Origin: Prevotella sp.
GTDB taxonomy: Bacteria; Bacteroidota; Bacteroidia; Bacteroidales; Bacteroidaceae
Length of the DNA stretch: 64,000 nucleotides
Direction: 5' to 3'
Assembly: GCA_017618275.1 (NCBI GenBank)
Contig: JAFZUS010000111.1
Span: 39,573 to 103,572, forward strand
Made by a program: the position numbers and the translations under genes
Notes under the pieces: generated by a model
Told to the model about the DNA's origin: nothing
What the model saw: the letters and a program-made list of their open reading frames with translations, nothing else
Database searches by the model: none
In this document: positions 1 through 28,414 of the stretch, in pieces
Position numbering within the stretch: the first letter of the stretch is position 1
Layout: each line of letters starts with the position of its first letter

Positions 1-1248
1 GCAGAAACAGGACGGCTTTTGCGGACTATGAGTGGACACAATTCAATTGTCAACTATGCGGCCTTCAGTAAAAACGGGAAACAAATATTATCCAGTTCAT
101 CGGACAATAACGTAAAAGTATGGGATGCCGAATCTGGACAATTAATCCGAACCTTGGAGGGCCACCATAAACCTGTGATTGAAACAACATATAGTCCCGA
201 TGGGAAATACATTCTGTCAGTATCTACAGATGAAACCCTAAGATTATGGGCTGCAGAACCAAGACAAGAGAAACAAACATTGGAAGGGCACTCTGATGCT
301 GTTAACTATGCGACATACAGCCCTGATGGTGAATATATTGTTTCTTGTTCAGAAGACAATACCATCAAAATTTGGGAAAGCACATCAGGTCGAGTAATCC
401 GTACGATAACAGGACACACAGACGTCATAAACATGATTGCTTTCAGCCCTGATGGAAAGTATTTCGCTTCTGCTTCCGATGATGGAACCGTGATAATATG
501 GGATGCAAAATCATATCAGTTAATCCGCACATTGAATAGTGATTGCGGTGATGCCAATTGTGTAGTCTTTAGCCCTGATGGAAAATTGATTGCCTCGTCT
601 TATCAGGATAATACTGTTATAATATGGGATGCAAAAACTGGAAATAAACTCAAAACAATTGATGATTGTTTCTATGGTAATGTCAGTTTTGTTTCATTCA
701 GCCCTGACGGAAGTCTTATCGCGACAGTTTCCAATAATGGAAAGTTAAGACTCTTTAATGCAAATACTGGAAAAGAAAAACTTGAAGTTGACCTTCATCT
801 TTCCTATGACCCAGACTTTCTGACTGTTAATTCTTTGTCCTTCAGTCCAGATGGTAAATATATTCTAACTGCAGTTTATGATGGATCTGTACAAATCAGA
901 GACTCAAATACGGGGCCGTTGTACCACAATCTGGCACATAACAATACTGTTAATTCTGCTTTCTTTAGTCCGGACGGAAAACTCGTTGTTACTGCTTCTG
1001 ATGATGGTGCCGTGAGGATTTGGGATGTCTATTATGAACAAGAAATTATGTCCTTTGAAGGACATTCGGCACCAGTCCGATTGGCTTTATTCAGCCCCGA
1101 CGGAAGAAATGTCGTTTCTGCTTCCGATGACTACACCATACGCATTTGGGAATTTCCGTCACTCCAAGAACTTATCGACAAAACCCGCGAACGTGTTAAT
1201 GGCAGGCCATTAACACACGAAGAGAAAGTGCTATATAATATGGAATAA
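1..1248 (+). CDS. WD40-repeat beta-propeller protein, C-terminal part (5' end lies upstream of the window)
   Basis: Frame 1 is open from base 1 (AETGRLLRTMSGH...), so the TTG at 19 is probably not the real start. At least nine WD40 units show the recurring pattern GH..V....FSPDGK...S.S.D.T(V/I/L).(I/L)W(D/E). Stop codon at 1246-1248. Confidence 0.9.
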   Translation, partial: AETGRLLRTMSGHNSIVNYAAFSKNGKQILSSSSDNNVKVWDAESGQLIRTLEGHHKPVIETTYSPDGKYILSVSTDETLRLWAAEPRQEKQTLEGHSDAVNYATYSPDGEYIVSCSEDNTIKIWESTSGRVIRTITGHTDVINMIAFSPDGKYFASASDDGTVIIWDAKSYQLIRTLNSDCGDANCVVFSPDGKLIASSYQDNTVIIWDAKTGNKLKTIDDCFYGNVSFVSFSPDGSLIATVSNNGKLRLFNANTGKEKLEVDLHLSYDPDFLTVNSLSFSPDGKYILTAVYDGSVQIRDSNTGPLYHNLAHNNTVNSAFFSPDGKLVVTASDDGAVRIWDVYYEQEIMSFEGHSAPVRLALFSPDGRNVVSASDDYTIRIWEFPSLQELIDKTRERVNGRPLTHEEKVLYNME

Positions 1249-1600: not shown

Positions 1601-1816
1601 ATGGTAACATTAAAAAACTGTCCAGCTCACGACTATAACCTGAGCATCATTTGCGAGTCTTATACTCCGATTTCAGCAGGCGAGGACATCGAGCCTGGAA
1701 CCCTTCACGCTGGTGAGGATATCGAACCTGGTACGCTCCATGCGGGTGAGGACATAGAGCCGGGTACACTTCATGCAGGTGAAGACATCGAGCCTGGAAC
1801 GCTCCATGCCGAGTAA
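1601..1816 (+). CDS. Small peptide with a 25-aa leader and four tandem AGEDIEPGTLH repeats
   Basis: ATG-to-TAA ORF. The four 33-nt units differ only at synonymous third-codon positions, which argues for real translation under purifying selection. A strong hairpin terminator follows directly. Confidence 0.75.
   Translation: MVTLKNCPAHDYNLSIICESYTPISAGEDIEPGTLHAGEDIEPGTLHAGEDIEPGTLHAGEDIEPGTLHAE
1676..1807 (+). repeat. 4 x 33-nt in-frame tandem repeat (each unit encodes AGEDIEPGTLH)
   Basis: Units: gcaggcgaggacatcgagcctggaacccttcac / gctggtgaggatatcgaacctggtacgctccat / gcgggtgaggacatagagccgggtacacttcat / gcaggtgaagacatcgagcctggaacgctccat. Confidence 0.95.
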
Positions 1817-1824
1817 GAACTAAG

Positions 1825-1866
1825 AGAGGTTGTGTGCATTAAAATAAGAGCACACAGCCTCTTTAT
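1825..1866 (+). terminator. Rho-independent-type terminator after the repeat-peptide ORF
   Basis: 13-bp stem agaggttgtgtgc (1825-1837) / gcacacagcctct (1850-1862) with one G-U pair and a 12-nt loop, followed by a T-rich tail (tttatt). Confidence 0.75.
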
Positions 1867-1913
1867 TACAAAAAGTACTTAATTATGTCACACGTACTAT
1901 ATAGGAGTCGATT

Positions 1914-2132
1914 ATGAGCAACATTCAACCAGGATCATTTTACCAATTGTCTTCAAGTCAGTCATCTGGTGATGATAAGTCTTCAATTTGGGGCGGCTTA
2001 ATATCATTTGGCATATCGGCATGTGTTTTCTTCTTCTATGCCTATGAGCAATTTGGTGTGTTTTGGGGGATTCTTTATTCTTTGTTTTGGTATTTTACAA
2101 TACCTGTTCATTATTTGTTAAGTTGTATTTAG
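1914..2132 (+). CDS. Small (72 aa) two-helix membrane protein
   Basis: Ser-rich polar N-terminus followed by two hydrophobic stretches (GGLISFGISACVFFFYAY and VFWGILYSLFWYFTIPVHYLL). I recognise no family. Confidence 0.5.
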   Translation: MSNIQPGSFYQLSSSQSSGDDKSSIWGGLISFGISACVFFFYAYEQFGVFWGILYSLFWYFTIPVHYLLSCI

Positions 2133-2363: not shown

Positions 2364-5303
2364 ATGAAAAAGAATACTACCAAATGCAAAGTCATTAGAA
2401 TGACCATTCTTGCCATTGTGTCATTATTAGTCGTTATTGGCCCTACATATTATATAAGAAATGTAAAAGGGTCTGTTCCAACAACGCGTTTGGAATCCTT
2501 CCTGAATCAAAGCCTCCCCAAACCCATAAAAACACATATAGCCAACAAGGAACTGAAGACAGGCGAAGTAGATGAAAATCTAAAACGCATCGATGATGTG
2601 CTAATCGGACTTGACAAAATAAACTTACAGACTTCTCCTGGTGCAAATCAGTTGCGGCTTTTTCTTGAAAAGCCTTGGGCGATGGATTACTTGTTTATCG
2701 CATCCGTTGTTTGCCTATTCTTTATTTTTATCATTTCTATTTGGAGGACATTCCGACGGAAACTATATAACAAATGGTATTGGATAATGATACCGCTCAT
2801 AGTCCTACTGGCTTTTTTGGACATCTCGCACCACCTTGATGATGCGTCTAAGAATCAGGTTGACGACTTCTTTGTCTTTATTTGTTTCCTAAGTATTGGC
2901 GTAGCAGTCATCGCTATTGTTCAGATGCTCATTAAATTCTTAGATAAAAAATTCAGTAGTCAGATTCGTCTAGTGCGGAGGGAACATCGTCAGAATACAT
3001 TGTTGTGGGCTGCCATTGCCGGTTGGTCATTAGCCTACCTGTGCTTTTTCATAGGTATGTATGCGGCAGGAACGCAGAAGTCGGCACTTGCAGCCATTTT
3101 CCGTCCTGCCCTGTCTGCTTGCAAGATGTTTTTCCTTGCCGACAGCCCAGCCGATTTCTCTGCAGCATTGCGTCTGAGTGGAGGCTTTATGGGTTTCTAT
3201 ACCATTGTCAAGATTATTGTTTTAACCATTACCACCTCGACTCTGATTTCACTCATTTTTTATAGATGGAAGGCCTCTTTGGATATAAATTTTGAGCATG
3301 CAGAAGGGAAAAAACTCTATGTATTCTTTGGTATTACAAGGGTCGCACGAATCTTGGCAAAGGATATCCGAGCAAAAGAAGAAGAATCTGTTATTGTATT
3401 TGTAGAAAACCGCGAAGAAAAATCTAACCTATTCAATTCCGTTTCTTTTAGTAGCGTCTTGGGATTACTGCGCCATAGAGGTGGGGCTTATGAGATTGCT
3501 GATGAAGTTGATGCTCATCTCATTATTAGTAATGTCATGATGAGCAGTCCGGAATGCAGTGAGTTGCTTTCCAAAGACGCTCCCACATCAATACAGTTGA
3601 TGATGAATAATCTGGGATTGAAGCATTTTTATTGTTTGGCAAAAGATGCCAAAGAGACACATTGCTTCTTTATGTATGATGACCAAAATATCAATATCAG
3701 TGGCTCTTACAACCTTCGCAAGTTTTTGAACAAGTCATTTTATGATTCTGATAAGAAATTCAAGATTCATTGTTGGGCAAGGCCGAGTGCCAAGACTCAG
3801 ATGCTAGAGATTCCTGAAGAAGAAACGTCTGTGTGGCTGTACCAAAAGACTATTAAAGAAAAAGTCATTCAATGTTATCATCGTCTTTCAGAATATTTAC
3901 AAACTTTGTATAAAAAATTATGTTGTCCAAAACAAAAAGACCACAAACAGGAACAGAAAGTGGTGAGTTCACCCAAATATGATACAGAAATAGAAATCCT
4001 TGATAGTTCACATTTGTCCGTACAGTTGCTTATGCAGAATCCAGAATGTCATCCAATACGCTTTGTGGATGTAGACACTGATACTGCAACTGTTAAAAAC
4101 CGGTTTGAGGCATTAATCATCGGCTTTGGTGAGACAGGCCAGGATACCCTTAAGTTCCTTTATGAATTTGGAGCATTTATGCACCACGAGTGTTCTGAAA
4201 ATGATTCAGAAGAAACGGCAAGAACTGCAATCACTGTTCGTTCTCCTTTTCATTGTGATGTGATAGATAGTAATATGAGTATGTTAAAGGCAGAGTTCAT
4301 GCATAATGCCCCAGCTGTAGCCAATGCGTTTAATATGCAGAAAAAAAGTGGCAAGTGGAAACCCAATTTAGAAGATCCGCTTGTGTCGTTTCATCAGGCA
4401 AAATACAACAGCCAAGAGTTTATTGACCTTATAGAAGAACGTATCACGAAAGTCAATTATATTGTTTTGGCATTAGGTAGTGACGAATTAAACCTCACGG
4501 TACTCAATGACTTGATGGAAATCGCTGTCAGAAAACGTGAAAAGGGCTATTTGGGAGAACTTACGATTTTTGTCCGCAGTTATCTGTATAGCAATAATGA
4601 AGCTATGAAACAAATGGCATCTTATTACAACAATTTGGGATACGGTGATGAAAATATTAAACGTATAAAGCGTGAACATGTAATCATCTTTGGCGAGGAA
4701 CACCAACTGTTTTCCTTTAAGAACATCATTAGGGATGAAATTGTATCTCATGCAAAAGAATACTTTAGAAGATATGAAGAACTGCGGACAAATAAGGAGA
4801 AAAATAAAGACATATGGGATAAACGCCATAATAACTATAAAATTTTGTCATGGGAAATAAGAAAGAAAGTAAAGCGTCAGGAACAGCAGGACATAAATAA
4901 TTCCCTACATGCAAAGACAAAGTATCGACTCATATCCAATCACGATATTCCTGTCTTGTTTAAGGAAATTGCTGATGCTATTATTTTTGAAGAAGGTGGT
5001 AAACCCATACAATTTAGTACAAGCGATATAGCCATAAAAAGAATATGTACGAACCTAGCACGTACGGAACATTTGCGTTGGAATGCCTCACATGAAATGT
5101 CAGGTTATATTATGAACGAGAGTACTGGTTGCAATGAAATGAACAAGACCCATAATTGTTTGGTTCCGTGGGAAATTCTACCTAAGGTTACAAGTACTCA
5201 CAACAAAGCAGAAGACCAAAAGAAACCTGAAGAAGAAAAATACTATGTAGACTATCAGGCCTACGACTATCTGGTGGTAAAAACTACGTTTGATTATGTT
5301 TGA
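2364..5303 (+). CDS. Polytopic membrane protein with two Rossmann-like (TrkA-N/RCK-like) modules and a C-terminal RyR-like domain
   Basis: About six hydrophobic helices in aa 10-300 (LFIASVVCLFFIFIISIW, WIMIPLIVLLAFL, FFVFICFLSIGVAVIAIVQMLI, LLWAAIAGWSLAYLCFFIGMYAA, YTIVKIIVLTITTSTLISLIFY). Glycine-loop segments LYVFFGITRVARILAKD and ALIIGFGETGQDTLKFL. The C-terminus (nt ~5040-5300), ARTEHLRWNASHEMSGY..KTHNCLVPWEILP..EEEKYY, aligns by eye with the two stand-alone RyR-domain genes downstream. Confidence 0.7.
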   Translation: MKKNTTKCKVIRMTILAIVSLLVVIGPTYYIRNVKGSVPTTRLESFLNQSLPKPIKTHIANKELKTGEVDENLKRIDDVLIGLDKINLQTSPGANQLRLFLEKPWAMDYLFIASVVCLFFIFIISIWRTFRRKLYNKWYWIMIPLIVLLAFLDISHHLDDASKNQVDDFFVFICFLSIGVAVIAIVQMLIKFLDKKFSSQIRLVRREHRQNTLLWAAIAGWSLAYLCFFIGMYAAGTQKSALAAIFRPALSACKMFFLADSPADFSAALRLSGGFMGFYTIVKIIVLTITTSTLISLIFYRWKASLDINFEHAEGKKLYVFFGITRVARILAKDIRAKEEESVIVFVENREEKSNLFNSVSFSSVLGLLRHRGGAYEIADEVDAHLIISNVMMSSPECSELLSKDAPTSIQLMMNNLGLKHFYCLAKDAKETHCFFMYDDQNINISGSYNLRKFLNKSFYDSDKKFKIHCWARPSAKTQMLEIPEEETSVWLYQKTIKEKVIQCYHRLSEYLQTLYKKLCCPKQKDHKQEQKVVSSPKYDTEIEILDSSHLSVQLLMQNPECHPIRFVDVDTDTATVKNRFEALIIGFGETGQDTLKFLYEFGAFMHHECSENDSEETARTAITVRSPFHCDVIDSNMSMLKAEFMHNAPAVANAFNMQKKSGKWKPNLEDPLVSFHQAKYNSQEFIDLIEERITKVNYIVLALGSDELNLTVLNDLMEIAVRKREKGYLGELTIFVRSYLYSNNEAMKQMASYYNNLGYGDENIKRIKREHVIIFGEEHQLFSFKNIIRDEIVSHAKEYFRRYEELRTNKEKNKDIWDKRHNNYKILSWEIRKKVKRQEQQDINNSLHAKTKYRLISNHDIPVLFKEIADAIIFEEGGKPIQFSTSDIAIKRICTNLARTEHLRWNASHEMSGYIMNESTGCNEMNKTHNCLVPWEILPKVTSTHNKAEDQKKPEEEKYYVDYQAYDYLVVKTTFDYV

Positions 5304-5393: not shown

Positions 5394-8300
5394 ATGACAA
5401 GTCGTAAAAATGATCGCTTTGAAAGAAATCTCATTGAAAATCGTGAGGTGCGTATATTCTTGTCCTCAACTTTTTCAGACATGGACCCAGAGCGTTCAGC
5501 GCTAGTAAAGGTATTCAACCAACTAAAGTTAAAGGCCAATCGTCGCAATGTTGGTCTTTCGTTACTTGATCTACGTTGGGGGGTAACTGATGAAGAGGCG
5601 CGAACAGGAAAAGTGCTTTCCGTTTGCTTGAATGAGATTGAGAACTCTCATCCGTTTTTCATTGGTCTACTAGGTAGTCGTTATGGTTATTCTCCTGATG
5701 CTATGGAAATTGAGAGGAATCCGGAACTGAAGGAACGGTATCCATGGCTCTCTCAAGATATTGAGCAAGGGTTGAGTATTACGGAGATGGAGATGCAGTA
5801 TGGAGCACTGCGAAATGAAAAGGGTGTTGAAGCTGCCTTTTTTATCAAGCATATCCCTAATATGCAACCTGATGATAATGAAAAACTAACTAAGCTGAAA
5901 AAAAAGATACGCGAACAGCATCGTTTCCCTGTGGCCGATTATTGCTCAATTGACGATCTTTGCCTGCAAGTTGAAAAAGTTGTAGATGGTTTGTTGGACA
6001 AGTATTTCAAAGAAGCCGATGAAACTCGTCATGGATGTATGCGGAATATCCAGCGCGCTTTTATGAATAGTCGACACAAACTCTATATACCTAGAAAAGA
6101 GGACTTTGAGCGCTTAAATCAATTCCTTAACAGTAAGGAACAATATCTTTTAGTGACAGGTCAAAGTGGTATAGGGAAAAGTGCATTAATCGCTAACTGG
6201 CTGAAAGAGCTAGAATGTAAAAAACACAAGCAACCTTGTAACATTATATACCACTTTTTAGGAAACACGTTCGGCAGTAACTCCTACGAGGAAGTGCTAC
6301 TTCATATCTGTGATGAGTTAGTCTCTCAACACTATTGTCGTGAAACCATTTTGGAAGATTATGAAAGTCTGGAAGATAGAGTTCAAAGATATATGTCGAT
6401 AGCTGTTAAGAAGGGTAAGCCTATCTTAGTTGTAATCGATGGCGTTAATCAGATATCAAATTATAATCAAAGTTTTCCTTTCGACTGGTTACCACAGCCA
6501 CATCCAAAGATAAAATATCTTTTTTCTTCAGTTGAGGATGACGAAATAACAAAGGCCTTCCATTACCATAAATACCCAATATATGTCTTAAAACCGTTTA
6601 ACATCGATCAGAAATATGAATTTATCTCAGAGTATCTTTCTCTTGTAGGTAAAAAACTCAATGAGGGCCAATATAATCGTATTATACATAGTCCAATAAC
6701 AAATAACGCATTGGTATTAAGGTCACTACTTGACGAACTCATTTGTTTTGGATCTTATGAATACCTTGATGACCGAATTAATTATTATATCTCATCCAAT
6801 TCTGTAGCAGATTTTTTTGACCGCATTCTACAACGAATGGAAAAGGATTATGAGGGTGCACAACTTCTGTTAGCCGTACTCTCTGTTTCAGAACATGGAC
6901 TGTCAGAGAATGAACTTGTAGGGATTACAGGCATTAGTAATATTAATTTTCATATGTTCTATTGTGCATATACTACTCATATAACCAATTGTCGTGGATT
7001 ATATAATTTCTCTCACCAATATTTTAAATATGCGGTAATGTCTCGATATCTGAAAGACCAGTTAAGTACTGAATTATATCGTAAAAAGATAATTCGATTT
7101 TTCTCTGAGAACAAAGATATCAGTTATAGTCGTAGAATGCCAGAACTTGCTTTTCAATATTATTCACTGAAGGATTTGAAGAGTCTATACGGCATCGTCT
7201 TGAATGATTATGCTTTCATGACTTTCTGTTCTACGACAGAAGGTAAAAGCCAATTGGCTCTATATTGGAAAGAATTGAAAGAGTCAGATCCAACCAAATA
7301 TCATTTCTCTGACTATTTAAATCTTTCTCATAAGATGAGTTTTTTTAGGAGAAGACCCTATTTGGAGATGGCCTCCTTCTTTTGTGAGTTTTTTACAGAT
7401 TACAAGACATCATTGAAATACGCTAAAGAATATCTTGCAATTGAAAAATCGGAAAAAGGGCAAGACTGGGATCGCATTGCGAAAGGACTTGTCCGGATTG
7501 GAATATATTACAAAGAACTACATAACTATGAGAAAGCTTTAGAAAATTTCTTTAAATTATTAAAAGACTATGAAAAAATTGTATTATACGATATTCATAC
7601 AATATACGAAGAAATGGATGATAATGATTTCTTTATGGAAGAAGAACTTCAGGATTATATTCTTGATTCGTATATCAATATTGGAGAAATATATTATTTA
7701 CAAGACAATATTAATAAAGCACAAGAATTTTTCCTTAAAGCATTAAAAGTTAGCAAGAGGATTTTTTTTGATAAGAATCATCCGTGGATTGCGTCTTGTT
7801 GTTGTTATGTCGGTAGGACACATGAAATAATGGGGAACTGTGATAAGGCAATCAGGAACTATCATAAAGCTCTTAGTATTTTTAAGAAACTATATGGTGA
7901 TTTTCATATAGAAACTGCTAATTGCTATTTTAGAACAGGCAAAACTTATGCACTTCAGAAAAACTATGATAAAGCTTTACTATACTACTTTAAAGTTGTT
8001 GATATATACAAACTTATCTATGGAAATAGCAATGCCCAAATTGCTAATTGTTATTTTTCTATTGGTAGCGTTTATGAATGTCGAAAAAACTACGATGAGG
8101 CTTTAGATTACTATTTAAGAGCTTTGGAACTCCGTAAAAAGACGGTAGGTAATAAGCATATAGCTACCGCTGTCACCTACACTCATATTGGTTATATATA
8201 TGAAAAAACTAATGAATATACAAAAGCTCTTGAGAGCCATATTAACGCCTTAAATTTTTATAAAATAAAATATGGAATCAATCACATAAAAACAGCTTAT

Positions 8301-9344
8301 TGCTATAATGACATTGGCAGAGTTTACAAATGCCTCGAAGAATATGAAAAAGCATTGAAATACTATTTTATGGATTTGAAGATTCGTATAGAAGAGTATG
8401 GAAATAACCATCTAGAGATAGCCGTATGCTATAATGACATTGGAGCAGTTTATCAAAAAATGAAAGAATTTGATACGGCGTTAGAGTACTATTTTAAAGA
8501 TTTATCAATCTCTGAAAACGTTGTTGGCTCGAATCTTATCGAAACTGCTATCTCCTATAGCGATATCGGAGAAACCTATAAATCTAAAGGGATGCCTCAA
8601 AAAGCGTTAGAATATTTTATCAAGGCTAAGGTGACTTACGAGTCTGTTCTTGGGACATGTCATCTTACTACAGCCGACACCTATAATGAAATTGCTGAGA
8701 TATTTACCAGCCTAGATGATTATTCACATGCGCTAGAATACCACTTAAAGTCTTTGGACGTATTTCAAAAAGTATATGGCATGGATCATTCTATAACAGC
8801 AGATGCATACAATGATGTTGGTTGGGACTATTTGCAACTAGAAGAATATGGCCAAGCTTTAGATTTCTATTTTAAGGCTTTGGCTTTTCATGAAAAGATG
8901 CAAGGTAAGGAACACGTTGAAACTGCAAATACCTATTACTATATCGCTTATATCTATGATGAATTGGATAATTATTCTATGGCGCTAGAATATAATATAA
9001 AGGTCTTGGATATATACAAGATAGTCTATGGCGATTATAGTACTAATACAGCTGATGCATATAGGGAAGTCGGGTGGGATTACTTGCAACTAGAAGTATT
9101 AGACAAATCTCTTGAGTATTTTTCTCAAGCGTTAGCTATACGTTTGAGAGAAATGGGCCAAAAGCATTCTGATACGGCTGAATCATATAAGGACATCGCT
9201 TTAGTTTATTTACGCCAAGGTGAATTACAACAAGCAATTGATTCATATTCTAATGCTTTAGTTATTGCTGAAAAGGTATTGGGAGAAAACCATCCGAATA
9301 CAATAGAAATAAGAAAGATGATAAAAGAATTATGTTCACATTAG
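5394..9344 (+). CDS. STAND NTPase: DUF4062-like (TIR-like fold) N-domain + NACHT-type P-loop + long TPR array
   Basis: The N-terminus VRIFLSSTFSDMDPERSALV...FFIGLLGSRYGYSP looks DUF4062-like. Walker A is LLVTGQSGIGKSALIANWL (nt ~6157-6186) and Walker B-like is PILVVIDGVNQ (nt ~6421-6450). The C-terminal ~600 aa are regular 42-aa kinesin-light-chain-type TPR units (...A.CY..IG.VY....(E/N)Y(D/E)KAL.YY.KAL.I..). Confidence 0.85.
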   Translation: MTSRKNDRFERNLIENREVRIFLSSTFSDMDPERSALVKVFNQLKLKANRRNVGLSLLDLRWGVTDEEARTGKVLSVCLNEIENSHPFFIGLLGSRYGYSPDAMEIERNPELKERYPWLSQDIEQGLSITEMEMQYGALRNEKGVEAAFFIKHIPNMQPDDNEKLTKLKKKIREQHRFPVADYCSIDDLCLQVEKVVDGLLDKYFKEADETRHGCMRNIQRAFMNSRHKLYIPRKEDFERLNQFLNSKEQYLLVTGQSGIGKSALIANWLKELECKKHKQPCNIIYHFLGNTFGSNSYEEVLLHICDELVSQHYCRETILEDYESLEDRVQRYMSIAVKKGKPILVVIDGVNQISNYNQSFPFDWLPQPHPKIKYLFSSVEDDEITKAFHYHKYPIYVLKPFNIDQKYEFISEYLSLVGKKLNEGQYNRIIHSPITNNALVLRSLLDELICFGSYEYLDDRINYYISSNSVADFFDRILQRMEKDYEGAQLLLAVLSVSEHGLSENELVGITGISNINFHMFYCAYTTHITNCRGLYNFSHQYFKYAVMSRYLKDQLSTELYRKKIIRFFSENKDISYSRRMPELAFQYYSLKDLKSLYGIVLNDYAFMTFCSTTEGKSQLALYWKELKESDPTKYHFSDYLNLSHKMSFFRRRPYLEMASFFCEFFTDYKTSLKYAKEYLAIEKSEKGQDWDRIAKGLVRIGIYYKELHNYEKALENFFKLLKDYEKIVLYDIHTIYEEMDDNDFFMEEELQDYILDSYINIGEIYYLQDNINKAQEFFLKALKVSKRIFFDKNHPWIASCCCYVGRTHEIMGNCDKAIRNYHKALSIFKKLYGDFHIETANCYFRTGKTYALQKNYDKALLYYFKVVDIYKLIYGNSNAQIANCYFSIGSVYECRKNYDEALDYYLRALELRKKTVGNKHIATAVTYTHIGYIYEKTNEYTKALESHINALNFYKIKYGINHIKTAYCYNDIGRVYKCLEEYEKALKYYFMDLKIRIEEYGNNHLEIAVCYNDIGAVYQKMKEFDTALEYYFKDLSISENVVGSNLIETAISYSDIGETYKSKGMPQKALEYFIKAKVTYESVLGTCHLTTADTYNEIAEIFTSLDDYSHALEYHLKSLDVFQKVYGMDHSITADAYNDVGWDYLQLEEYGQALDFYFKALAFHEKMQGKEHVETANTYYYIAYIYDELDNYSMALEYNIKVLDIYKIVYGDYSTNTADAYREVGWDYLQLEVLDKSLEYFSQALAIRLREMGQKHSDTAESYKDIALVYLRQGELQQAIDSYSNALVIAEKVLGENHPNTIEIRKMIKELCSH

Positions 9345-9378: not shown

Positions 9379-9693
9379 ATGAATCAGGAGATATACACCC
9401 CGCAGCCCATTGACACCAGCGATGTTGAGCTGCCAAAGGAACTGGAGGCACTGGTGGAACAGATGTCGAAGAACGTACATGATGTTTGGGCGGAGACTCG
9501 CATCAAACAAGGATGGAAGTATGGATCAGAACGAAACGACGAGCTGAAGACGTATCCTTGTCTGATTCCATACGAGGAACTGCCTGAGGAAGAGAAGGAG
9601 TACGATCGCAATACCTGCATCGGCACGCTTAAGCTCATCATGAAATTGGGATTTGATATTTCAAAAGCGCAAAATAAAACTCAACAAGTATGA
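9379..9693 (+). CDS. Stand-alone RyR (ryanodine-receptor repeat, PF02026-type) domain protein, copy A
   Basis: HDVWAETRIKQGWKYG..RNDELKTYPCLIPYEELPEEEKEYDRNT matches my recollection of the RyR-domain signature. The stop overlaps the next gene's start (ATGA at 9690-9693). Confidence 0.85.
   Translation: MNQEIYTPQPIDTSDVELPKELEALVEQMSKNVHDVWAETRIKQGWKYGSERNDELKTYPCLIPYEELPEEEKEYDRNTCIGTLKLIMKLGFDISKAQNKTQQV
9394..9665 (+). repeat. Direct repeat copy A (RyR gene body), ungapped and highly similar to 11982-12253
   Basis: The copies lie 2588 nt apart and read colinearly without indels (tacaccccgcagcccat(t/c)gacaccagcgatgt...gtttgggcggagactcgcatcaaacaaggatgga...). Confidence 0.85.
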
Positions 9694-11942
9694 AAATTGA
9701 TAAAAAAGGATTCAAAGCGGAGATTGAGAAACAGAATGCCAGAGGAAATCTGGATGTTTTTATCAGCTACAGGAGCAAAGAAGTTGACTTTGTTACAAGA
9801 CTTTATGAGGAATTCAAAAACAACTTCGTAAATGCATGGTTTGACAAGGCAATACTTCATGAAAATGCAGGAAAGTATTATCCAGAAATCATACATGAAG
9901 GAATTCGAAATTCGAAGTTTTTTCTCCTGATATACACAGAGAGTATTGCCGAATCAGAATTTATTATAAAGCAGGAACTTGAATACGCAATAAGCCAAGG
10001 GAAAACTATTTTATGCTATCCTAAGGAAACCCCAGACTTTAACAAGATGGAGAAAAACCTTAAGAAGCAACTTGAATCTATCCAATGGCTTGCTAACAAG
10101 GAAAGTAGTAAAGATATTGACGCATATAGAAAGGAGATTGAAGAGGAACGGAAGCGTGTCATTATGGCAAAAACCGTAAATGACTCGCCCGAGAAGTATT
10201 CTGTCTATGAAGATGAGAATCTCTTTCTGATTCGCATTGAGATCCAGCGCCTTTTAAAGAAACTGACACCTTACGGCAACTACCAAACAATAAGCAAGGC
10301 AGATCCTGTTTACGATTGGGACAATATTCAACTAAGAATATGGCCTAAGACTTTTTACATAAAAATACCAGAAACTAAATACAAAGACCTAGAAAAGGGA
10401 GGATTCTTTAAAACAGCCAAAGAGGATTCAAAGAAAAAGGAAAAAGCTATTGACGATTACTTTGACAAGATAAAAAACATCCATAAAATAGAGGAAAACG
10501 AAATACTGGAATATCTAAAAAATTTCATTAATTCCTATGACCACAAGAAGCTTTATAATTGGATGCTTCAAAATAGGTCTGAATACATGAAACCATACAC
10601 AGAAGAAGCGTTCTCAGCTGACGACTTCATCAAAGTTATGGCAATGATAACTAGTGACGCTTTTATCAAGCAATTGGGAGCTAAGCAGGTGATGTTTAAT
10701 GGTGCAATGACAGGTCTGTATGGGGTGACAGATAACCGTACGAAGAATAGTGAAAGTCACTATTTGACTATGGATATGTATTTTACTAACTATTTTACCT
10801 TTAAGTGTATGGTGGAGACGTACCATACCCTAAGGTCAATAGAAGACAAATTTGAAAAAATCAAGACAACAAACATACGAAAATATTCACCATTTTTAAG
10901 TTCTTTGGGATTGGGAGGTTTTGTCGTTATTAACCAAGATTACAATTTGCATTTAATGTGGACATATAGGAGCGGAAAGATTTCGTCTGGCGATATGTGG
11001 CATTTCTCGTTTGATGAGACATCCAATATTTTGAAGGATTGTTTCCACGATAAGCATGGGAATTTTGTTCTTGATGAAGATTTCTGTCTGCTTATTGATA
11101 TGAAATCATATTTTATGCGAGCATTGAGAGAGGAAATTGGATTATCACCTGATGACATTTCTTTCCGTCAAGGTGTAACAGAGCTTGGAATTATCAAGAG
11201 TGAAAGATTAGAGGCAGAACTATTATCCTACTGTGTAGTAGATCTGCCGGCACAACCTTCTATCGTAGAGCAAATGGCTAAATTTCGAAACATTGCCCCC
11301 GACAGCTATCTTGAAACGGAGGAAATAGAAATTATACCATTGCAAGAAACCGCAAAAAAAATGACAGGTAGATTGTTGACTCCAGAATCCGTAAGTCTGT
11401 CATCGTTCGTTGAAAAAATAATGGATCAAATGGACAAGGAAAATCGTGGAATCAATATTGCTCCGACAGCAAAAATAGGTATTGAGACTAAGATTGGAAA
11501 GAATTGTATCATAGAAGATTATAGCTATATAGGCTCAAAATGTAGCATAGGTGATGAGTGTAAGATTCATCGAAATGTCTTTATCGACAATAATGTAGTA
11601 ATTGGTAATCGTGTCAAAATTCAGAACAATAATAGTATCTACGAAGGAGTTACATTGGAAGACGGTACTTTTATTGGAACTAACGTGACCTTTATCAATG
11701 ACCGACATCCCAGAGCTATATTAAAAGATGGGAAACAGGTTGGACCTGGTGATTGGGAAAGGGGATATACTCGAGTTCGTTATGGTGCGTCATTAGGGGC
11801 AGGTTCTGTTATTATGTGTGGAGTTACCATTGGCAAGTGGGCAATGGTGGCCGCAGGCTCTGTTGTCCTTGAAGATGTTCCTGATGGCGCGTTGGTTGCT
11901 GGTAATCCAGCAAGGATAATAAAAACGGACATTCCTTATTAG
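9690..11942 (+). CDS. TIR-domain protein fused to an uncharacterised middle region and a C-terminal left-handed beta-helix (hexapeptide) acyltransferase domain
   Basis: N-terminus LDVFISYRSKEVDFVTRLYEEF...FFLLIYTESIAESEFIIKQELEYA looks like a TIR domain. The C-terminal ~170 aa carry hexapeptide repeats (IGKNCIIEDYSYIGSKCSIGDECKIHRNVFIDNNVVIGNRVKIQNNNSIYEGVTLEDGTFIGTNVTFINDRHPRA...VIMCGVTIGKWAMVAAGSVVLEDVPDGALVAGNPARII), resembling nucleotide-sugar N-acetyltransferases. I could not assign the middle ~400 aa. Confidence 0.8.
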   Translation: MKIDKKGFKAEIEKQNARGNLDVFISYRSKEVDFVTRLYEEFKNNFVNAWFDKAILHENAGKYYPEIIHEGIRNSKFFLLIYTESIAESEFIIKQELEYAISQGKTILCYPKETPDFNKMEKNLKKQLESIQWLANKESSKDIDAYRKEIEEERKRVIMAKTVNDSPEKYSVYEDENLFLIRIEIQRLLKKLTPYGNYQTISKADPVYDWDNIQLRIWPKTFYIKIPETKYKDLEKGGFFKTAKEDSKKKEKAIDDYFDKIKNIHKIEENEILEYLKNFINSYDHKKLYNWMLQNRSEYMKPYTEEAFSADDFIKVMAMITSDAFIKQLGAKQVMFNGAMTGLYGVTDNRTKNSESHYLTMDMYFTNYFTFKCMVETYHTLRSIEDKFEKIKTTNIRKYSPFLSSLGLGGFVVINQDYNLHLMWTYRSGKISSGDMWHFSFDETSNILKDCFHDKHGNFVLDEDFCLLIDMKSYFMRALREEIGLSPDDISFRQGVTELGIIKSERLEAELLSYCVVDLPAQPSIVEQMAKFRNIAPDSYLETEEIEIIPLQETAKKMTGRLLTPESVSLSSFVEKIMDQMDKENRGINIAPTAKIGIETKIGKNCIIEDYSYIGSKCSIGDECKIHRNVFIDNNVVIGNRVKIQNNNSIYEGVTLEDGTFIGTNVTFINDRHPRAILKDGKQVGPGDWERGYTRVRYGASLGAGSVIMCGVTIGKWAMVAAGSVVLEDVPDGALVAGNPARIIKTDIPY

Positions 11943-13402: not shown

Positions 13403-15553
13403 ATGAATAAAGTTACCATCGTAAAACAATATCGGAATACCCAAACGCTCAGGCAGATGGATCTCTCTGAGGTCGTGCAGGCTATTCAGAATCAGGCATA
13501 CGCCGAATTATGTAAGGAACTGCGGTCTGTCTATCCCTTGGTTGAGGTGCGCCAGAAGTATGATACCATGGACGGCCTGTTGTATCTCTATACCAAGGAC
13601 TTGCCCAAGGTCTGCTTCGCATCGCTGATGGAGAACAGGAACAAGCAGCGGCTGACAAGGGCCTACAACGGGCTGGTGCTGCTGGAGGTGAACAACCTCG
13701 CCGCTTTCGATGAGGCTGAGGCTGTCAGAAAAGGTGCCAGTCAGATTCCTCATACCCTTCTGGCCTTCGTCGGAGCCAGCGGTAGGAGCGTGAAGATTGT
13801 ATGTCGGGGGGAACTGTTCAATGGCGGACTGCCTGAAAGTGCCGAGGAAATCGGCGTCTTTCACACCAACCTCTATGAGAAAGCCCGTGTGGCCTATAAC
13901 ATGCAACTCGGTGTGACTATCGAGAAACTGGAACCAACGCTCGACAGAGATTGTTATATCAGTAGTGATCCGAACCTATTTTATAACCCTGGTGCGCAAA
14001 CCTTCTATACCGACTGTTCAGACGTGGACAAGGCCGTGAGACCGGTGACGCTCTACGCAGAGAAACAGGAGAAACTGATGCCTGGCATGGACAACAGCCG
14101 TGCCATGCACCTTATCTATGAGTATTGTCTCTCGAAAGCCTACGATGACACAGCGGGTATCAGTGATGGGGAGGAAAGGACACACCTGATCCTAACGCGA
14201 CTGGCAGGCTACTGTCAGGAGTCGGGGCTCGCGATGGCGGTGGCACAGCGGTTGGCACTGTTCAGTCTGACGCTCGGAAAGGATCCGGACTTAGTGAAAA
14301 AGACGTTTGAGAATGCCTATCGTGAGGAGCATGAGAGGAAATACCGCCAGCGCAAGAACATCACCAAACCGATGAAGCATGTCCCTGCTGAGACATTGCT
14401 GATGATGAAGGTGGATATCTTCCTCAATACCAACTACGAGTTGCGTAAGAATGTGATGAGGGGCGTGGCGGAATATAGGATGCGTACAGGCTACGGTTTC
14501 AGTTATCAGGACTTGACGGAAGAAGCACGCAACTCTATCACGATGCGGGCATTGTCGCAGGGTGTGAAGTGCTGGGACAAGGACATCAACCGTTATGTGA
14601 ACTCCAATGACATTGAACTCTATGAACCGATGACGGACTTCCTGGATCACCTGCCGAAGTGGGACGGCAAGGACCGAGTGGAGCCCCTCGCCCGCCGTGT
14701 CAAGACGGATTTCGAGGAATGGCCATATCTCTTCCATATCTGGATGCGTTCGATGGTGGCCATGTGGCGTGGCAAGGGACAGTTGACAGGCAATGCCCTC
14801 GTACCTATATTAATTGGTCGTCAGGGGTGCGGAAAGACATCCTTCTGTCGGATCCTGTTGCCCAGAGACCAGCGGGATTACTATAATGACCGCATCAACT
14901 TCAAGAACGAGCATGACCTGAACCTCGGACTGACCTCCTTTGCGCTGATCAATCTCGACGAGTTTGATAAGATTACTCAGCGCCAGCAGATCGTATTGAA
15001 GTACCTTGTGTCGACCTCCGATTTAAAATATCGTCCGCCATACGGCAAGGCTTATTCGAACCATCGTAGATATGCCTCATTTATCGGCACCACGAACGAG
15101 AGTACGCCGCTGACGGATCCCAGTGGCAGCCGACGGTTTATCTGTGTCAACGTGGAGGGCGACATCGACTTTGAGACACCGATAGACTACCCGCAACTCT
15201 ATGCCCAACTGGAATACGAGGTGTCGAGACAAAGACTGCGCTACCATCTGACCCGTGACGAGGAGCATATGTTGATGCAGCACAATCTGCGCTACCAGCG
15301 TCTTACCCAACTTGGCGAGCAGTTGCTCTCGCTTTTTGAAAAGCCGGAGGGGACGTCGAAGACCAATCCAGAGGGTGGCCAATGGATGACACTGAAGGAA
15401 ATCTCCGCCCGTTTGAAGAAGGTCTTCAAGGGTGCCTATGCAGAGGATGAGGGTTCCTATATTAAAATAGGTAACTTCCTCAACCGTCCCGAATGTAAGT
15501 TCGAGAGCGACCGCAAGTCCTTCGGCATGGTGTATTGGGTGAAGGAAAGGTAA
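13403..15553 (+). CDS. VirE-like / BT4734-type primase-helicase (P-loop NTPase of mobile elements)
   Basis: The N-terminal region resembles the BT4734/VirE_N primase-like domain. P-loop PILIGRQGCGKTSFCRILLP and Walker B ALINLDEFDK, then the typical C-terminal region (IGTTNE...GSRRF). Confidence 0.75.
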   Translation: MNKVTIVKQYRNTQTLRQMDLSEVVQAIQNQAYAELCKELRSVYPLVEVRQKYDTMDGLLYLYTKDLPKVCFASLMENRNKQRLTRAYNGLVLLEVNNLAAFDEAEAVRKGASQIPHTLLAFVGASGRSVKIVCRGELFNGGLPESAEEIGVFHTNLYEKARVAYNMQLGVTIEKLEPTLDRDCYISSDPNLFYNPGAQTFYTDCSDVDKAVRPVTLYAEKQEKLMPGMDNSRAMHLIYEYCLSKAYDDTAGISDGEERTHLILTRLAGYCQESGLAMAVAQRLALFSLTLGKDPDLVKKTFENAYREEHERKYRQRKNITKPMKHVPAETLLMMKVDIFLNTNYELRKNVMRGVAEYRMRTGYGFSYQDLTEEARNSITMRALSQGVKCWDKDINRYVNSNDIELYEPMTDFLDHLPKWDGKDRVEPLARRVKTDFEEWPYLFHIWMRSMVAMWRGKGQLTGNALVPILIGRQGCGKTSFCRILLPRDQRDYYNDRINFKNEHDLNLGLTSFALINLDEFDKITQRQQIVLKYLVSTSDLKYRPPYGKAYSNHRRYASFIGTTNESTPLTDPSGSRRFICVNVEGDIDFETPIDYPQLYAQLEYEVSRQRLRYHLTRDEEHMLMQHNLRYQRLTQLGEQLLSLFEKPEGTSKTNPEGGQWMTLKEISARLKKVFKGAYAEDEGSYIKIGNFLNRPECKFESDRKSFGMVYWVKER

Positions 15554-15605: not shown

Positions 15606-18158
15606 TCAATGAGCATGTCGGGATTCATCAGTTTGGCTATTAGGATGGGCCAACCAATCCGCCACCTGATCTTCATCGACAAACTCCTCCATCCACAGAC
15701 CACTTTCAATTGGATCAAAGAGAGTTACAACATTGTTTATGGTATTGATAATCCTGTCAATATATGCGCGTGCACTCTTTTCGTACAATTTTATGTACAG
15801 CATAATAGAATCCTTATAACACTCTTCTGCTTGTTTGCTTTTCCCTGCTTTTGCGTATAGGTTGGCAATTGCAAAATAATTCCTTGCAAGATCCGTATTG
15901 AATGCGCCTGCTTCTCCTTTGGTAATGCAATTATAAATATCAATTGCCTGCAAAGAATATATTTCGGCCTTTTCATACTGATTCCAAAAGACATAATGCT
16001 GCGAAAGATTGCTGTATGAAGCAGCAAGGGCAGGCTTCATAGCCGGTTCACGATCAACCAGGCGTTTTCTTATGGCGATTGCTTCTGCATAGTTTACTTC
16101 TGCCTTTTGTTTTTCACCAATTTGAGTGTAAAAAGTACCTGTCACATTATAGGCTTGTGCAAGAGATGGGTCATGCGCTTCTGGATTTTCATCTGCCAAA
16201 ATTTTATGATGACGTAACGATTCCTGAAGCAGCGACTCTATAAAGGATTTGTCGATAGGCCGTTCATAGAAATCGTAGTCTAATGCTCGGTATTCTTCTT
16301 TGTCGTTTGCATACGTTTTATTTTGAATAATAGATTTGATTCGTTCTGCCTCTTGCAAAAACTGGTTGCCGTATGTGGCATCACCATTCTCTTTCCAATA
16401 GAGTCCTAACTTCCTTAATATGCGTTCTAAGAATATATAATAAACTACCGGATTCTTTTGCGTCAGTAATTGTTTTATTTTCATTGCTTGAACATAATAG
16501 CGTTCTGCTTTACAATGGCTGTATACTGCGATATCCAAAAATGCGATTTTATTACATGATTCGGCCAATTCTGCCGTATACCGCTTTTCCCCGTTATTGA
16601 CCAGTTCTGAATATTTAGTATGGGCATCTATAAACAACTTTCTTGCATCTTCGTGGCGGTTAATCATATAATACAATTTACCCAGTTCCAGACTTGTGCG
16701 TGCAATATCTACATCAACGGCTTCAATCGCTTCTGTGTCATATTTTTTGTATAAGGCAAGTGCTTGTATATACAATGCCTCGGCCTCAATGAAACGAGTT
16801 ACCATATAATATACTTTTGCCAATTTTACACTACTTTCAGCGATTAGAATATCCTTTTCTTTTCCCTGCGCAGTACTGGCTTTTCGCAATTCAATCGCTT
16901 TATGCAAAAACGATTCGGCATCTCTGAAGTTGTTTGTGCAATAATATAGTTCACCCTGCAAATCATACAGTTCTGTTTTTTCATGTTCAGATATAGTCTG
17001 GGGATTTTGTGTCAGTGCAGATTGCAACTTAATGCAGACATCCAGGCTTTTCTGATAATTCTGCTGGCGGTAGAGGAATCTGGCAAACTCAAGCATAATC
17101 GCTTTGGGCGCAGTCAGAGTTTCTTCCACCATCGTTGTTGCACGTTCATAGTTCTCCTGAACTTCCTTCCACTTTCCCTGCGCTTCTAAAGATGAAATAC
17201 GCCAGCGAAATTCGTCTATACAGTTTAGTCTTTCCATATACAACATTTCCTCCTTTGCGTTTGTCTGTAAGAAACGTTCTTCAATCTCATCTGGACGCAA
17301 AAGATCTTGTACGCCCTCATAATCACCGCGATCAAATAGTTGTATTGCCTTACGAATACGCTCATTAAGAACAGAACTTGATATTTTTTTAGCAATTGTT
17401 GTTCCCACATTCAGTATTTCATCAGATATCTCTCTAAGATTATCTTGCACCCACAACTTTTCTTTAACAGCCTTTTGATATGCCTTGTATGCTCTTGTGT
17501 TATTTCTGTCTTGTTCGTAGATTTTGAAAAGTTTTGCACAGTTTTCTTCAGCAATTTGGCTTTTTTTTACTAAAACAAGGTATTCGTCATTTTGTGAATA
17601 AGCCGGAATATGTTCAGTTGAAACAACTTTGCGTCCAGATACAGTTACATGTTCATCTTCTACCTTTATTTCCGCACGTAGAAAGCCATGTACCTGAAGT
17701 TGGGTTATGATTCCAAGTTTTAACGAGTCAATATGAGAATATTCTCTATGATAGTGCAATAGTTTCTGATCAATATCTTCCATTACACGACGGACATCAT
17801 CAGAAAGAGATTCTCCCTCTGCTAGGCTCTTAAAATAAACAACAATTTTTGGATTGCTTTTTATTTTGAATTCTTCCAATGCTATGCGCAATTCTTGCTC
17901 TGTGACATCACCGGCTTTATGCCAAAAGACGACAAAGCAAAGATCTGATTCGCGAATTTCGTCATTCAATGATTTTTGTGTCCCGCCATTAATTATTGTA
18001 TGATCCTCTGATTCATCCTCACATTTGTGTAAATGAATAAACAAATTCTGACCATTATAAATATTATTCAATGTATTTATAAAATTACCAATAGACTCGC
18101 GATCATCTTTCAAATCTGTGATGGATGATGCTAGGAATATGTGAATTGTTTTTTTCAT
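15606..18158 (-). CDS. DUF4062-like (TIR-like) N-domain + TPR-repeat protein with no NTPase motif seen
   Basis: The N-terminus IHIFLASSITDLKDDRESIGNFI...IRESDLCFVVFWHKAG parallels the N-domain of the 5394 gene. The C-terminal two thirds are TPR-like (Y..A...Y.KA(I/L)E(L/I)...). I saw no GxxxxGK(S/T). Confidence 0.7.
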   Translation of the reverse strand: MKKTIHIFLASSITDLKDDRESIGNFINTLNNIYNGQNLFIHLHKCEDESEDHTIINGGTQKSLNDEIRESDLCFVVFWHKAGDVTEQELRIALEEFKIKSNPKIVVYFKSLAEGESLSDDVRRVMEDIDQKLLHYHREYSHIDSLKLGIITQLQVHGFLRAEIKVEDEHVTVSGRKVVSTEHIPAYSQNDEYLVLVKKSQIAEENCAKLFKIYEQDRNNTRAYKAYQKAVKEKLWVQDNLREISDEILNVGTTIAKKISSSVLNERIRKAIQLFDRGDYEGVQDLLRPDEIEERFLQTNAKEEMLYMERLNCIDEFRWRISSLEAQGKWKEVQENYERATTMVEETLTAPKAIMLEFARFLYRQQNYQKSLDVCIKLQSALTQNPQTISEHEKTELYDLQGELYYCTNNFRDAESFLHKAIELRKASTAQGKEKDILIAESSVKLAKVYYMVTRFIEAEALYIQALALYKKYDTEAIEAVDVDIARTSLELGKLYYMINRHEDARKLFIDAHTKYSELVNNGEKRYTAELAESCNKIAFLDIAVYSHCKAERYYVQAMKIKQLLTQKNPVVYYIFLERILRKLGLYWKENGDATYGNQFLQEAERIKSIIQNKTYANDKEEYRALDYDFYERPIDKSFIESLLQESLRHHKILADENPEAHDPSLAQAYNVTGTFYTQIGEKQKAEVNYAEAIAIRKRLVDREPAMKPALAASYSNLSQHYVFWNQYEKAEIYSLQAIDIYNCITKGEAGAFNTDLARNYFAIANLYAKAGKSKQAEECYKDSIMLYIKLYEKSARAYIDRIINTINNVVTLFDPIESGLWMEEFVDEDQVADWLAHPNSQTDESRHAH

Positions 18159-28319: not shown

Positions 28320-28382
28320 ATAAAAATAATACTATGATGGCATTTTTTTGCTGTTTTGTGATGGAGTTTAAGAAAAAATGCC

Positions 28383-28390
28383 TATATTTG
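28383..28390 (+). promoter_or_regulatory. -7 promoter box (TATATTTG)
   Basis: 25 nt upstream of the ATG at 28415, which opens a signal peptide. Confidence 0.55.
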
Positions 28391-28414
28391 CAAACAAAAC
28401 CAAACTATAGAAAG

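Follow-up and report, generated by a model that had tools for sequence, protein, structure and literature searches.

A 64,000-nucleotide stretch of the Prevotella sp. contig JAFZUS010000111.1 (assembly GCA_017618275.1, positions 39,573 to 103,572 of the forward strand), here called the window, carries near its start a small gene whose 71-residue product consists of a leader and four tandem 11-residue units. Sequence comparison indicates that this product is a conserved N-terminal module, here free-standing, of a PAHDxNLS leader followed by tandem 11-residue units, and that the module, a JAB/JAMM peptidase and a ThiF/MoeB-type E1-like enzyme make up an undescribed three-part core. The family can be read as JAB/E1 conjugation-like operons in which the modifier appears replaced by a tandem peptide module and new accessory domains added. 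The repeats probably play the role that ubiquitin-like proteins (Ubls) have in related systems. L-numbers below denote loci, and P-numbers proteins, examined as relatives. The peptide gene has the following parts in window coordinates:

1601-1816, forward strand: peptide gene, 71 amino acids (aa), leader plus four tandem 11-residue units, ATG start, stop codon included.
1601-1675, forward strand: leader, 25 aa, MVTLKNCPAHDYNLSIICESYTPIS, with two Cys and the family-wide motif CPAHDYNLS at 1619-1645.
1676-1807, forward strand: four 33-nt units starting at 1676, 1709, 1742 and 1775, each encoding AGEDIEPGTLH, delimited by the repeat and the family profile.
1808-1813, forward strand: two-residue tail Ala-Glu after the last unit; most stand-alone relatives have 0-3 variable residues after the last TLH.

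The product of the open reading frame (ORF) at 1601-1816 is accordingly MVTLKNCPAHDYNLSIICESYTPIS, four copies of AGEDIEPGTLH, and AE. Tandem Repeats Finder delimits the repeat at 1672-1809, with a period of 33, 4.2 copies, 78% matches and zero indels. Pairs of units differ at 5-8 of 33 nucleotides, and the 11 variable columns are all third codon positions and all synonymous. The chance of 11 third positions out of 11 is about 5e-9, and in simulations random substitutions were all synonymous in 5e-6 of trials with seven changes and in 0 of 200,000 with eight. For the six unit pairs the proportion of nonsynonymous differences (pN, Nei-Gojobori) is 0 and that of synonymous differences (pS) is 0.62-1.00, so that synonymous sites are saturated; by this evidence the array is old. 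Against the orthologue in L016 (88% identical), pN/pS is 0.02 in units 1-3 and 0.14 over the whole gene. A first-pass annotation, made from the letters of the window, had described the four units with their third-position synonymous differences and had proposed conservation of the peptide and not of the DNA, and both statements are borne out. Between the window and L016, pS is 0.63 in the units, 0.13 in the leader and 0.25 in TM72, the 72-aa product of the next gene; a higher value in the units is expected if they are gained and lost and their positions are not truly orthologous. The last unit of L016 has drifted to GGEDIDEWTFH.

The same annotation had remarked on the two Cys of the 25-residue leader and on a GC-rich ORF in an AT-rich spacer, which is confirmed by GC fractions of 0.58 in the repeats, 0.51 in the whole ORF and 0.30 in the upstream spacer 1249-1600. 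As read from the sequence, the leader has no hydrophobic core of a signal peptide. Sites found in a sigma-70 promoter scan were no commoner than in shuffled sequence, under a scan model that does not cover Bacteroidota promoters. A known non-coding element, which had been named as a way in which the gene might dissolve, was sought in Rfam, and 1200-2400 gave no match at E <= 1. An identical 71-aa protein is present on 13 contigs.

A homologue search, suggested with the first reading and made over 5.8 billion proteins, yielded a family. The close homologues number 41, have 44-120 aa and share the leader M-x5-[C]PAHDxNLS followed by 1-4 units. A profile search over 1.84 billion cluster representatives returned 115 at E <= 0.001, some being unrelated repeat proteins (P0167, P0171, P0187, P0190, P0193 and others), which were rejected as members. 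The unit is carried by 110 proteins in 1 to about 20 copies (the maximum in P0162), has the consensus [GA]-G-E-[ED]-[IL]-x-P-G-T-L-H and usually follows the leader PAHDxNLS. The profile of 450 units from the 110 proteins is [G.65/A.18]-G.87-E.87-[E.68/D.17]-[I.84/L.14]-x-P.82-G.94-T-L.91-H.91; nine of the 11 positions are conserved at 65% or more, and T, L, H and the Gly at position 8 at 91% or more. Of 340 unit-to-unit spacings, 295 are exactly 11 residues. In the leader, each of A9, H10, D11, L14 and S15 is kept by 90% or more of 31 peptides. The last unit of close homologues often reads PWTLH and is followed by 0-3 variable residues; two proteins stop exactly at TLH. Close orthologues hold anywhere from 1 to 8 copies, and unit DNA is near-identical in some loci (0-4 differences in L018, 1-4 in L020), which indicates that arrays grow and shrink by DNA duplication while selection keeps the peptide constant.

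Family members occur in rumen and gut Bacteroidales, in Saprospiraceae and in one Ignavibacteriales-labelled record, and the EDIEPGTLH type of the window in two GTDB species representatives only. Plasmid, phage and IMG/VR collections gave no relatives, only low-complexity matches. Relatives of the peptide, of TM72 and of the d135 domain described below are all named 'hypothetical protein' in their sources, and Pfam, NCBIfam and PADLOC gave nothing usable for these three or for the 979-aa protein encoded downstream. In the papers searched no prior description of the motif or of the gene combination was found, PGTLH occurring in a single unrelated paper, and a brief earlier mention may exist; the early statement that no described family has this repeat agrees with these searches.

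Some family members show further variation. A few run past the last TLH into a Cys/His-rich tail of about 28 residues (..QCPKCKHWF..H..C..), which would be another kind of downstream domain. L013 (2738-3400 and 9006-10783), from a Saprospiraceae metagenome-assembled genome (MAG), contains at least six separate repeat-peptide genes without the PAHD leader; the same locus has two complete d135-JAB-ThiF-d135 cassettes in 20 kb, and one of its arrays is broken by a masked run of N. The unrelated P0187 (873 aa, with tail-fibre-style repeats of about 48 residues) contains S-H-x-H-A-G-E-D-I-T-S-G-T, probably by chance amplified by repetition.

A JAB/JAMM peptidase and a ThiF/E1-like enzyme accompany a motif-bearing ORF in all 13 loci with adequate flanks. 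Their genes are adjacent to it in L008, L010, L013, L015, L018/19, L020, L023, L024, L027, L028, L029 and L030. Rumen Bacteroidales have JAB and E1 as one fusion protein of 479-813 aa, whose 813-aa form contains a second, weaker ThiF-like region; elsewhere the two are separate genes. Eight JAB domains of the family all retain the JAMM residues (Glu, HSHP, Ser, Asp), and the E1 part has the nucleotide loop and a CxxC...CxxC zinc site. ThiF/MoeB models match this part, as do the PADLOC Cap2 'E1-E2' models, at a best E = 2e-15, while Cap3-type PADLOC models match the JAB part; the PADLOC E1-E2 and JAB matches are graded weak. Neither an ABC/MFS exporter nor a C39 peptidase is among the genes called in the 13 loci, and no conserved enzyme of ribosomally synthesized and post-translationally modified peptides (RiPPs), of the radical-SAM, YcaO or ATP-grasp type, accompanies the module. 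Radical-SAM/YcaO genes, considered as a RiPP clue, are seen in some loci (L010, L018, L031) and are not conserved partners; those of L018 lie beyond housekeeping genes (tRNA-synthetase, peptidase M3).

The minimal core comprises three genes, repeat-d135, JAB and E1. In L013, L028 and L030 the next gene after the core encodes a CAP-domain protein, and in L029 the core has genes for a relaxase and a coupling protein as neighbours. Additions in the rumen version are a ClpB-like double-AAA+ protein lacking Clp_N, a transglutaminase-core protein, proteins of 125 and 108 aa and a protein with a weak bacterial-PH-domain match, and in rumen Bacteroidales the core is also extended by small membrane proteins of the TM72 type. 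Separate JAB genes end in a hydrophobic, probably membrane-spanning segment (L015 10507-11211, L029 8705-9397, L030 8996-9688, L028 8762-9709). These tails and the separate small membrane proteins of the rumen loci suggest that the system works at the membrane.

In the core the module is either free or, in about half of its family, fused to a domain called d135 here, an unannotated domain of about 115 aa with invariant Cys, His and Asp; most of the 225 members of the d135 family carry this fusion. In related loci a d135 protein of about 135 aa is encoded directly upstream of the JAB and ThiF genes, and its N-terminus holds one motif copy (LQPGTLHF, LQPGMLCV, ILAGTLAS and similar). The module is fused to larger domains in 50 of the 110 family members. 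In many of the d135 members read, a single polypeptide runs from the leader through 3-15 units and a degenerate last unit (..EQLKEGTLHA..) to d135, as in P0052, P0053, P0071, P0077 and L015 9830-10459. Other fusions join the leader and six units to a JAB domain (P0163), eleven copies of a divergent unit DTLHGGE[FY]I[DE][RK] to a d135-like domain (P0165), or the leader and two motifs to a two-segment membrane domain (L008 10465-10758 and orthologues).

AlphaFold models d135 as a beta-meander, a loop with the invariant His...Cys and then three helices. A trimmed P0046 reaches a predicted local distance difference test score (pLDDT) of 91.6 and a predicted template modelling score of 0.85; in P0060 the domain exceeds 90 and the repeats score 45-57. 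A d135 profile gave only chance interleukin-1 matches among PDB sequences (E about 0.3) and no Pfam match. On these models and searches d135 looks like an orphan fold, and its likeness to an E2 enzyme would lie in operon position and the invariant Cys and not in demonstrated homology. In both models a short strand of the d135 sheet is formed by the last G-T-L-[HC] copy (P0046 residues 10-12; P0060 L70-H71), whose G and L are invariant or nearly so in 74-75 d135 sequences, which suggests that the repeat unit may derive from duplication of the N-terminal strand and linker of d135 itself.

The enzymes are also present on the contig of the window (L034), where window position 1 corresponds to position 18948. 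L034 was reached through P0371, a member of the ClpB-like cluster from a Prevotella sp. MAG. In tblastn, the window plus 10 kb upstream, whose edge is occupied by the ClpB-like gene, gave no JAB, E1 or d135. ClpB-like relatives of 93-96% identity have the JAB-E1 and PH-like genes directly upstream in L031 and L032, with d135 ahead of them in L031; the contig of L033 ends just upstream of its PH-like gene. Two genes of L034, both on the strand of the peptide gene, complete the set 9-11 kb upstream of the window start:

L034 7665-8111, same strand as the peptide gene: d135, with VELQPGILC at its N-terminus.
L034 8171-9658, same strand as the peptide gene: JAB-E1 (JAB-ThiF) fusion.

On this one strand the order is sigma-like, anti-sigma-like with RyR, d135, JAB-E1, PH-like, ClpB-like, transglutaminase-like, then TIR-FGE-sulfatase, a 200-aa gene, WD40 (803 aa) and WD40 (852 aa, ending at window 1248), and finally peptide, TM72, 979-aa protein, STAND-TPR, RyR and TIR-hexapeptide. 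By this order the peptide gene shares a cluster with the enzymes proposed to process and activate its product. Maturation enzymes upstream of the window, to which the first-pass annotation had directed attention, are thus represented on the contig by the JAB metallopeptidase-E1 fusion, the transglutaminase-fold protein and d135.

ClpB-like/transglutaminase genes of 93-96% identity precede wholly different gene sets in L001 (from 2557), L031 and L033. The cargo after the transglutaminase gene is TIR-FGE-sulfatase, WD40s and peptide in L001; NusG-like, radical SAM and YcaO in L031; and SIR2-TIR, nSTAND1 and RyR in L033. The stretch downstream of the transglutaminase gene, which holds the peptide-TM72 pair, looks like a variable cargo region and an apparent exchange hot spot. 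At the other end of the cluster, d135 is directly preceded by two overlapping genes at L034 5960-7427 (some 11.5-13 kb upstream of the window start), one sigma-factor-like and encoding 190 aa, the other encoding 307 aa. The 307-aa product is anti-sigma-like at its N-terminus and carries a RyR domain at its C-terminus, and the gene pair is also found in L031 and L035.

The gene following the peptide gene and the hairpin between them are:

1823-1864, forward strand: 15-bp hairpin and U-rich tract between the peptide gene and the TM72 ORF, assigned by folding energy.
1914-2132, forward strand: TM72, 72 aa, two hydrophobic segments, assigned by homology and conserved linkage to the peptide.

The ORF at 1914-2132 had been noted early as a two-helix membrane protein paired with the peptide; its two hydrophobic segments and the pairing are upheld. 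A 92% identical protein lies beside the peptide in L016 and L017 (pN/pS 0.14), where the two-gene block is kept and the surrounding DNA is unrelated. TM72 is homologous to the C-terminal half of the 97-aa fusions of leader, two motifs and membrane domain in L008 (tblastn, E 1.5e-11 to 2e-11), and such fusions also occur in L018, L020, L022 and L023; this homology marks TM72 as a genuine linked component of the system. Its N-terminus, IQPGSFYQ, is an apparent degenerate motif copy, and by this comparison the membrane domain in the window is split from the leader and keeps only IQPGSFYQ. A terminator with a 13-bp stem had been proposed between the two genes; the hairpin is there and its stem has 15 pairs (dG -24.6 kcal/mol, z = -6.3, 0 of 200 shuffles equally stable), followed by UUUAUUAC. 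The 12-nt loop caused it to be overlooked by a simple scan, and the stem is also kept in L016. It is predicted to be terminator-like, or else a processing or attenuation element.

The closest analogue of the family is the Type I Bub operon (6E.1/DUF6527), in which BubAB, a Ubl-E2 fusion, is cut by BubCD, a JAB-E1 fusion, so that the Ubl C-terminus is exposed for adenylation (PMC11601596). In both, the modifier is fused upstream of a small Cys/Ser-bearing domain beside a JAB-E1 fusion. Type I Bub modifiers come in 1-3 tandem copies, whereas here 1 to about 20 disordered 11-residue units follow a leader and are not beta-grasp domains. Unlike the E2 of Bub, d135 is not detectably an E2; no DUF6527 (BubE) was seen among the called genes of these loci, and the ClpB-like ATPase and the transglutaminase-fold, bacterial-PH-like and small membrane proteins are extra. 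Bub, together with CBASS Cap2/Cap3 and Bil, has recently been established as a working bacterial conjugation system; to our knowledge the modifier in all such bacterial systems is either a beta-grasp protein or a folded enzyme's tail. Type II CBASS (an antiphage signalling system based on cyclic oligonucleotides) resembles the family in its Cap2 (E1-E2) and Cap3 (JAB), whose models the E1 and JAB parts match, and in a substrate that is a disordered C-terminal tail and not a Ubl; it differs in its CD-NTase, cyclic-nucleotide effector and recognisable E2 fused to E1, none of which is present here. Type II CBASS as an identification was rejected, the CD-NTase and effector being absent from every locus.

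Eukaryotic polyubiquitin and ubiquitin-fusion genes have identical units head to tail, synonymous divergence, variable copies, a short tail and a dedicated peptidase. The head-to-tail units of the present family, their synonymous divergence, variable copy number, short tails and alternative genes that fuse the unit upstream of another protein fit a precursor of this kind. The unit differs in having 11 residues instead of a 76-residue folded domain, in following a leader and in ending in His (or [GA]-Gly) and not in Gly-Gly, and conjugation is here a proposal. A beta-grasp substrate is not required by all enzymes of the superfamily: MccB acts with MccA (microcin C7) and PaaA with PaaP (pantocin A), each a ThiF-superfamily adenylating enzyme with a short ribosomal peptide. 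The family shares that pairing. MccA and PaaP are single-core, lack JAB and d135 and come with export or immunity, whereas here cores are in tandem, fusions are frequent and there is no exporter. Yeast alpha-factor and multi-core RiPPs also place several identical short peptides after a leader, are secretory and have signal sequences or exporters; the family is like them in leader, identical short peptides and variable copies, and unlike them in lacking a signal peptide or exporter and in being usually fused to an intracellular domain. The NTP-dependent 'ternary' conflict systems contain Ubl-conjugation sets within AAA+/beta-propeller/STAND islands and effector-associated domain (EAD) adaptors (Kaur et al. 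2020, PMC7159879). The present loci are similar to those systems in combining AAA+, beta-propeller, STAND and TIR proteins with JAB/E1, in carrying the modifier in a larger polypeptide and in sharing N-terminal modules; their beta-grasp Ubls, E2, RING E3 and folded EADs were not detected here.

By analogy with these systems, the tandem repeats are proposed as the substrate of the JAB/E1 pair, processed and activated in the manner of a Ubl precursor, a proposal that we regard as evenly balanced between right and wrong. The JAB peptidase would cut the array at the invariant T-L-H / [GA]-G-E junction and release 11-mers, and would also sever the module from what follows it (d135, membrane domain or 0-3-residue tail). 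The E1-like domain would then adenylate the newly exposed C-terminus, and the activated peptide might be passed to a nucleophile, possibly via the invariant Cys of d135. The window gene would be a four-copy 'poly-tag' precursor, comparable to polyubiquitin, supplying substrate in trans, and TM72 another client or effector of that processing machinery. The forms in which the module occurs are those of a modifier precursor: fusions to d135, JAB and a membrane domain exist, and free forms end 0-3 residues after the last unit. The junction L-H-G-G resembles the L-R-G-G tail of ubiquitin, a likeness that is our own reading. The weight of the precursor proposal would lie mostly on the substrate relationship and less on conjugation. 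Ubiquitin-like tagging in full, with an 11-residue peptide modifier excised by JAB from a tandem precursor or from fusions to its carrier domain, activated by E1, attached to targets by way of d135 as a new Cys-bearing carrier fold and acting in a Bacteroidota conflict system that recruits a ClpB-like unfoldase, is a doubtful extension.

Several observations weigh against a Ubl-like precursor. The steps of cleavage, adenylation and conjugation are all inferred from context. The unit is not beta-grasp, having 11 residues, pLDDT 45-57 in the repeat region and no Pfam match. T-L-H-[GA]-G-E is the sequence at 295 of about 340 internal junctions, and the last unit and the d135 junction end in T-L-[HC] without Gly. 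A cut after His would make His the activated residue, which is unusual for E1 enzymes, and a cut after [GA]-G would use a site absent from the last unit and from the d135 junction. The conserved leader has no counterpart in Ubl systems. Foldseek of two d135 AlphaFold models against PDB gave a best E of 0.47; UFC1, an E2, appeared at E = 0.9-3 with probability <= 0.05, and d135 as an E2 enzyme was dropped on the lack of a PDB fold match and the low probability of UFC1. In the models the last motif copy looks structural within d135, which would fit binding equally with cleavage. In the window's cluster, seven genes lie between JAB-E1 and the peptide gene.

An alternative that we consider unlikely is that the module is never cut and serves as a multivalent adaptor or decoy, its units docking by beta-strand addition onto d135, a WD40 propeller or the hexamer of the ClpB-like protein. 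As a free four-unit peptide it would cluster those partners, titrate them or gate them, and the shared N-terminal module would gather components. The modelled strand on d135 with its near-invariant G and L in 74-75 sequences speaks for such docking, as do the frequent WD40, STAND-TPR and AAA+ neighbours and the way in which the module heads several different downstream domains, the pattern of EAD adaptors in NTP-dependent conflict systems (PMC7159879). Docking leaves the invariable JAB and E1-like partners unexplained, however, and WD40 and ClpB-like genes are absent from the three-gene cores L028-L030; nine conserved residues of 11 and a strict 11-residue spacing exceed the usual need of a strand-docking motif. 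A narrower form, in which the repeats are a ligand or decoy for WD40 and TPR sensors, had been offered by the first-pass annotation on the basis of gene placement. It found no specific support, since the consistent partners are JAB, E1 and d135; multivalent binding to some partner is possible. The placement itself was only partly right: the WD40 gene is upstream as described, and the gene directly downstream of the pair encodes the 979-aa membrane protein, with TPR-STAND after it.

Less probable still is a RiPP-type multi-core precursor, whose leader would recruit the E1-like enzyme in the MccB/PaaA manner so that each core is modified. JAB, the transglutaminase-fold protease or both would free modified 11-mers acting as toxin, metal binder or signal, with TM72 in export or immunity. 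A conserved leader before repeated near-invariant cores of variable copy number is what such a precursor has, the cluster holds an adenylating enzyme of the MccB/PaaA superfamily and one or two protease-fold proteins, and the Glu/Asp and His of the unit are plausible sites of modification or metal binding. Yet exporter and C39 peptidase are wanting in the 13 loci, the 'precursor' of about half of the members is fused upstream of a folded 115-aa domain or JAB, the radical-SAM genes (L010, L018, L031) do not accompany the module consistently, the models matched by the E1 part are ThiF/MoeB and Cap2 with no RiPP-recognition element detected, and the loci reside in defence/conflict islands or conjugative elements. 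The multi-core precursor first suggested for this gene survives as a selected gene with conserved leader and repeats, and is not supported as to a mostly free peptide (about half are fused), an exporter or a conserved radical-SAM, YcaO or ATP-grasp enzyme. The idea that the repeat is a non-coding DNA or RNA element with an accidental ORF has a negligible probability. It could appeal to the overlapping reverse-strand ORFs at 1647-1769 and 1673-1807 (40 and 44 aa), which are by-products of the periodicity; L016 and L017 list a comparable 40-aa reverse-strand ORF. Variation within and between loci all respects the reading frame, the peptide is kept across Bacteroidales, Saprospiraceae and the Ignavibacteriales-labelled record while the DNA is not, and the same units stand inside long ORFs fused to folded domains; with Rfam silent, the idea is effectively refuted.

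Two further identifications were considered and rejected. A secreted quorum/arbitrium (RRNPP) peptide does not agree with a leader without hydrophobic signal core, and the nearby TPR protein is a NACHT/STAND NTPase and not an RRNPP regulator. Pup-proteasome tagging was set aside, PafA/Dop not being among the called genes and the C-termini differing from GGQ/GGE.

The family keeps JAB and E1, puts a periodic, near-invariant 11-residue unit in the place of the modifier and adds an orphan domain with an invariant Cys. It gives names and partners to several hundred 'hypothetical' proteins of Bacteroidales, Saprospiraceae and the Ignavibacteriales-labelled record. Should the units be cut and activated as in the precursor proposal, no smaller E1-activated tag would be known, and the family would offer a natural means of joining a peptide to the C-terminus of a protein. 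Modification and release of the units would make them a new RiPP class with an unusual JAB/E1 toolkit, and a docking role would make them a new adaptor logic in conflict islands.

Around the peptide-TM72 pair the window contains the following genes:

19-1248, forward strand: C-terminal 409 aa of the 852-aa WD40 protein, which starts upstream of the window; cluster neighbour.
2364-5303, forward strand: 979-aa membrane protein with a weak RyR match near its C-terminus (E = 0.019), no Pfam match at 0.01, membership of the system uncertain.
5394-9344, forward strand: DUF4062-NACHT/STAND-TPR protein, 1316 aa; conflict-island context.
9379-9693, forward strand: RyR-domain protein, 104 aa (RyR E = 7.9e-36); context.
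9690-11942, forward strand: TIR plus left-handed beta-helix (hexapeptide) protein, 750 aa; context.
13403-15553: VapE/BT4734-type primase-like protein.
15606-18158, reverse strand: TPR protein, 850 aa.
19074-23471, reverse strand: RHS-repeat protein, 1465 aa.

RyR-domain genes recur in L031, L033 and L034. The primase-like, TPR and RHS genes that follow the cluster suggest that the first 24 kb or so of the window are a mobile or conflict island. Housekeeping genes, such as that for cysteinyl-tRNA synthetase (41381-42730), lie further downstream in the window. Two very large surface-type proteins are encoded at 28334-41301, the first (1618 aa) having BspA-type leucine-rich repeats and a dockerin, the other (2692 aa) Listeria-Bacteroides repeats together with CARDB and CarboxypepD_reg domains.

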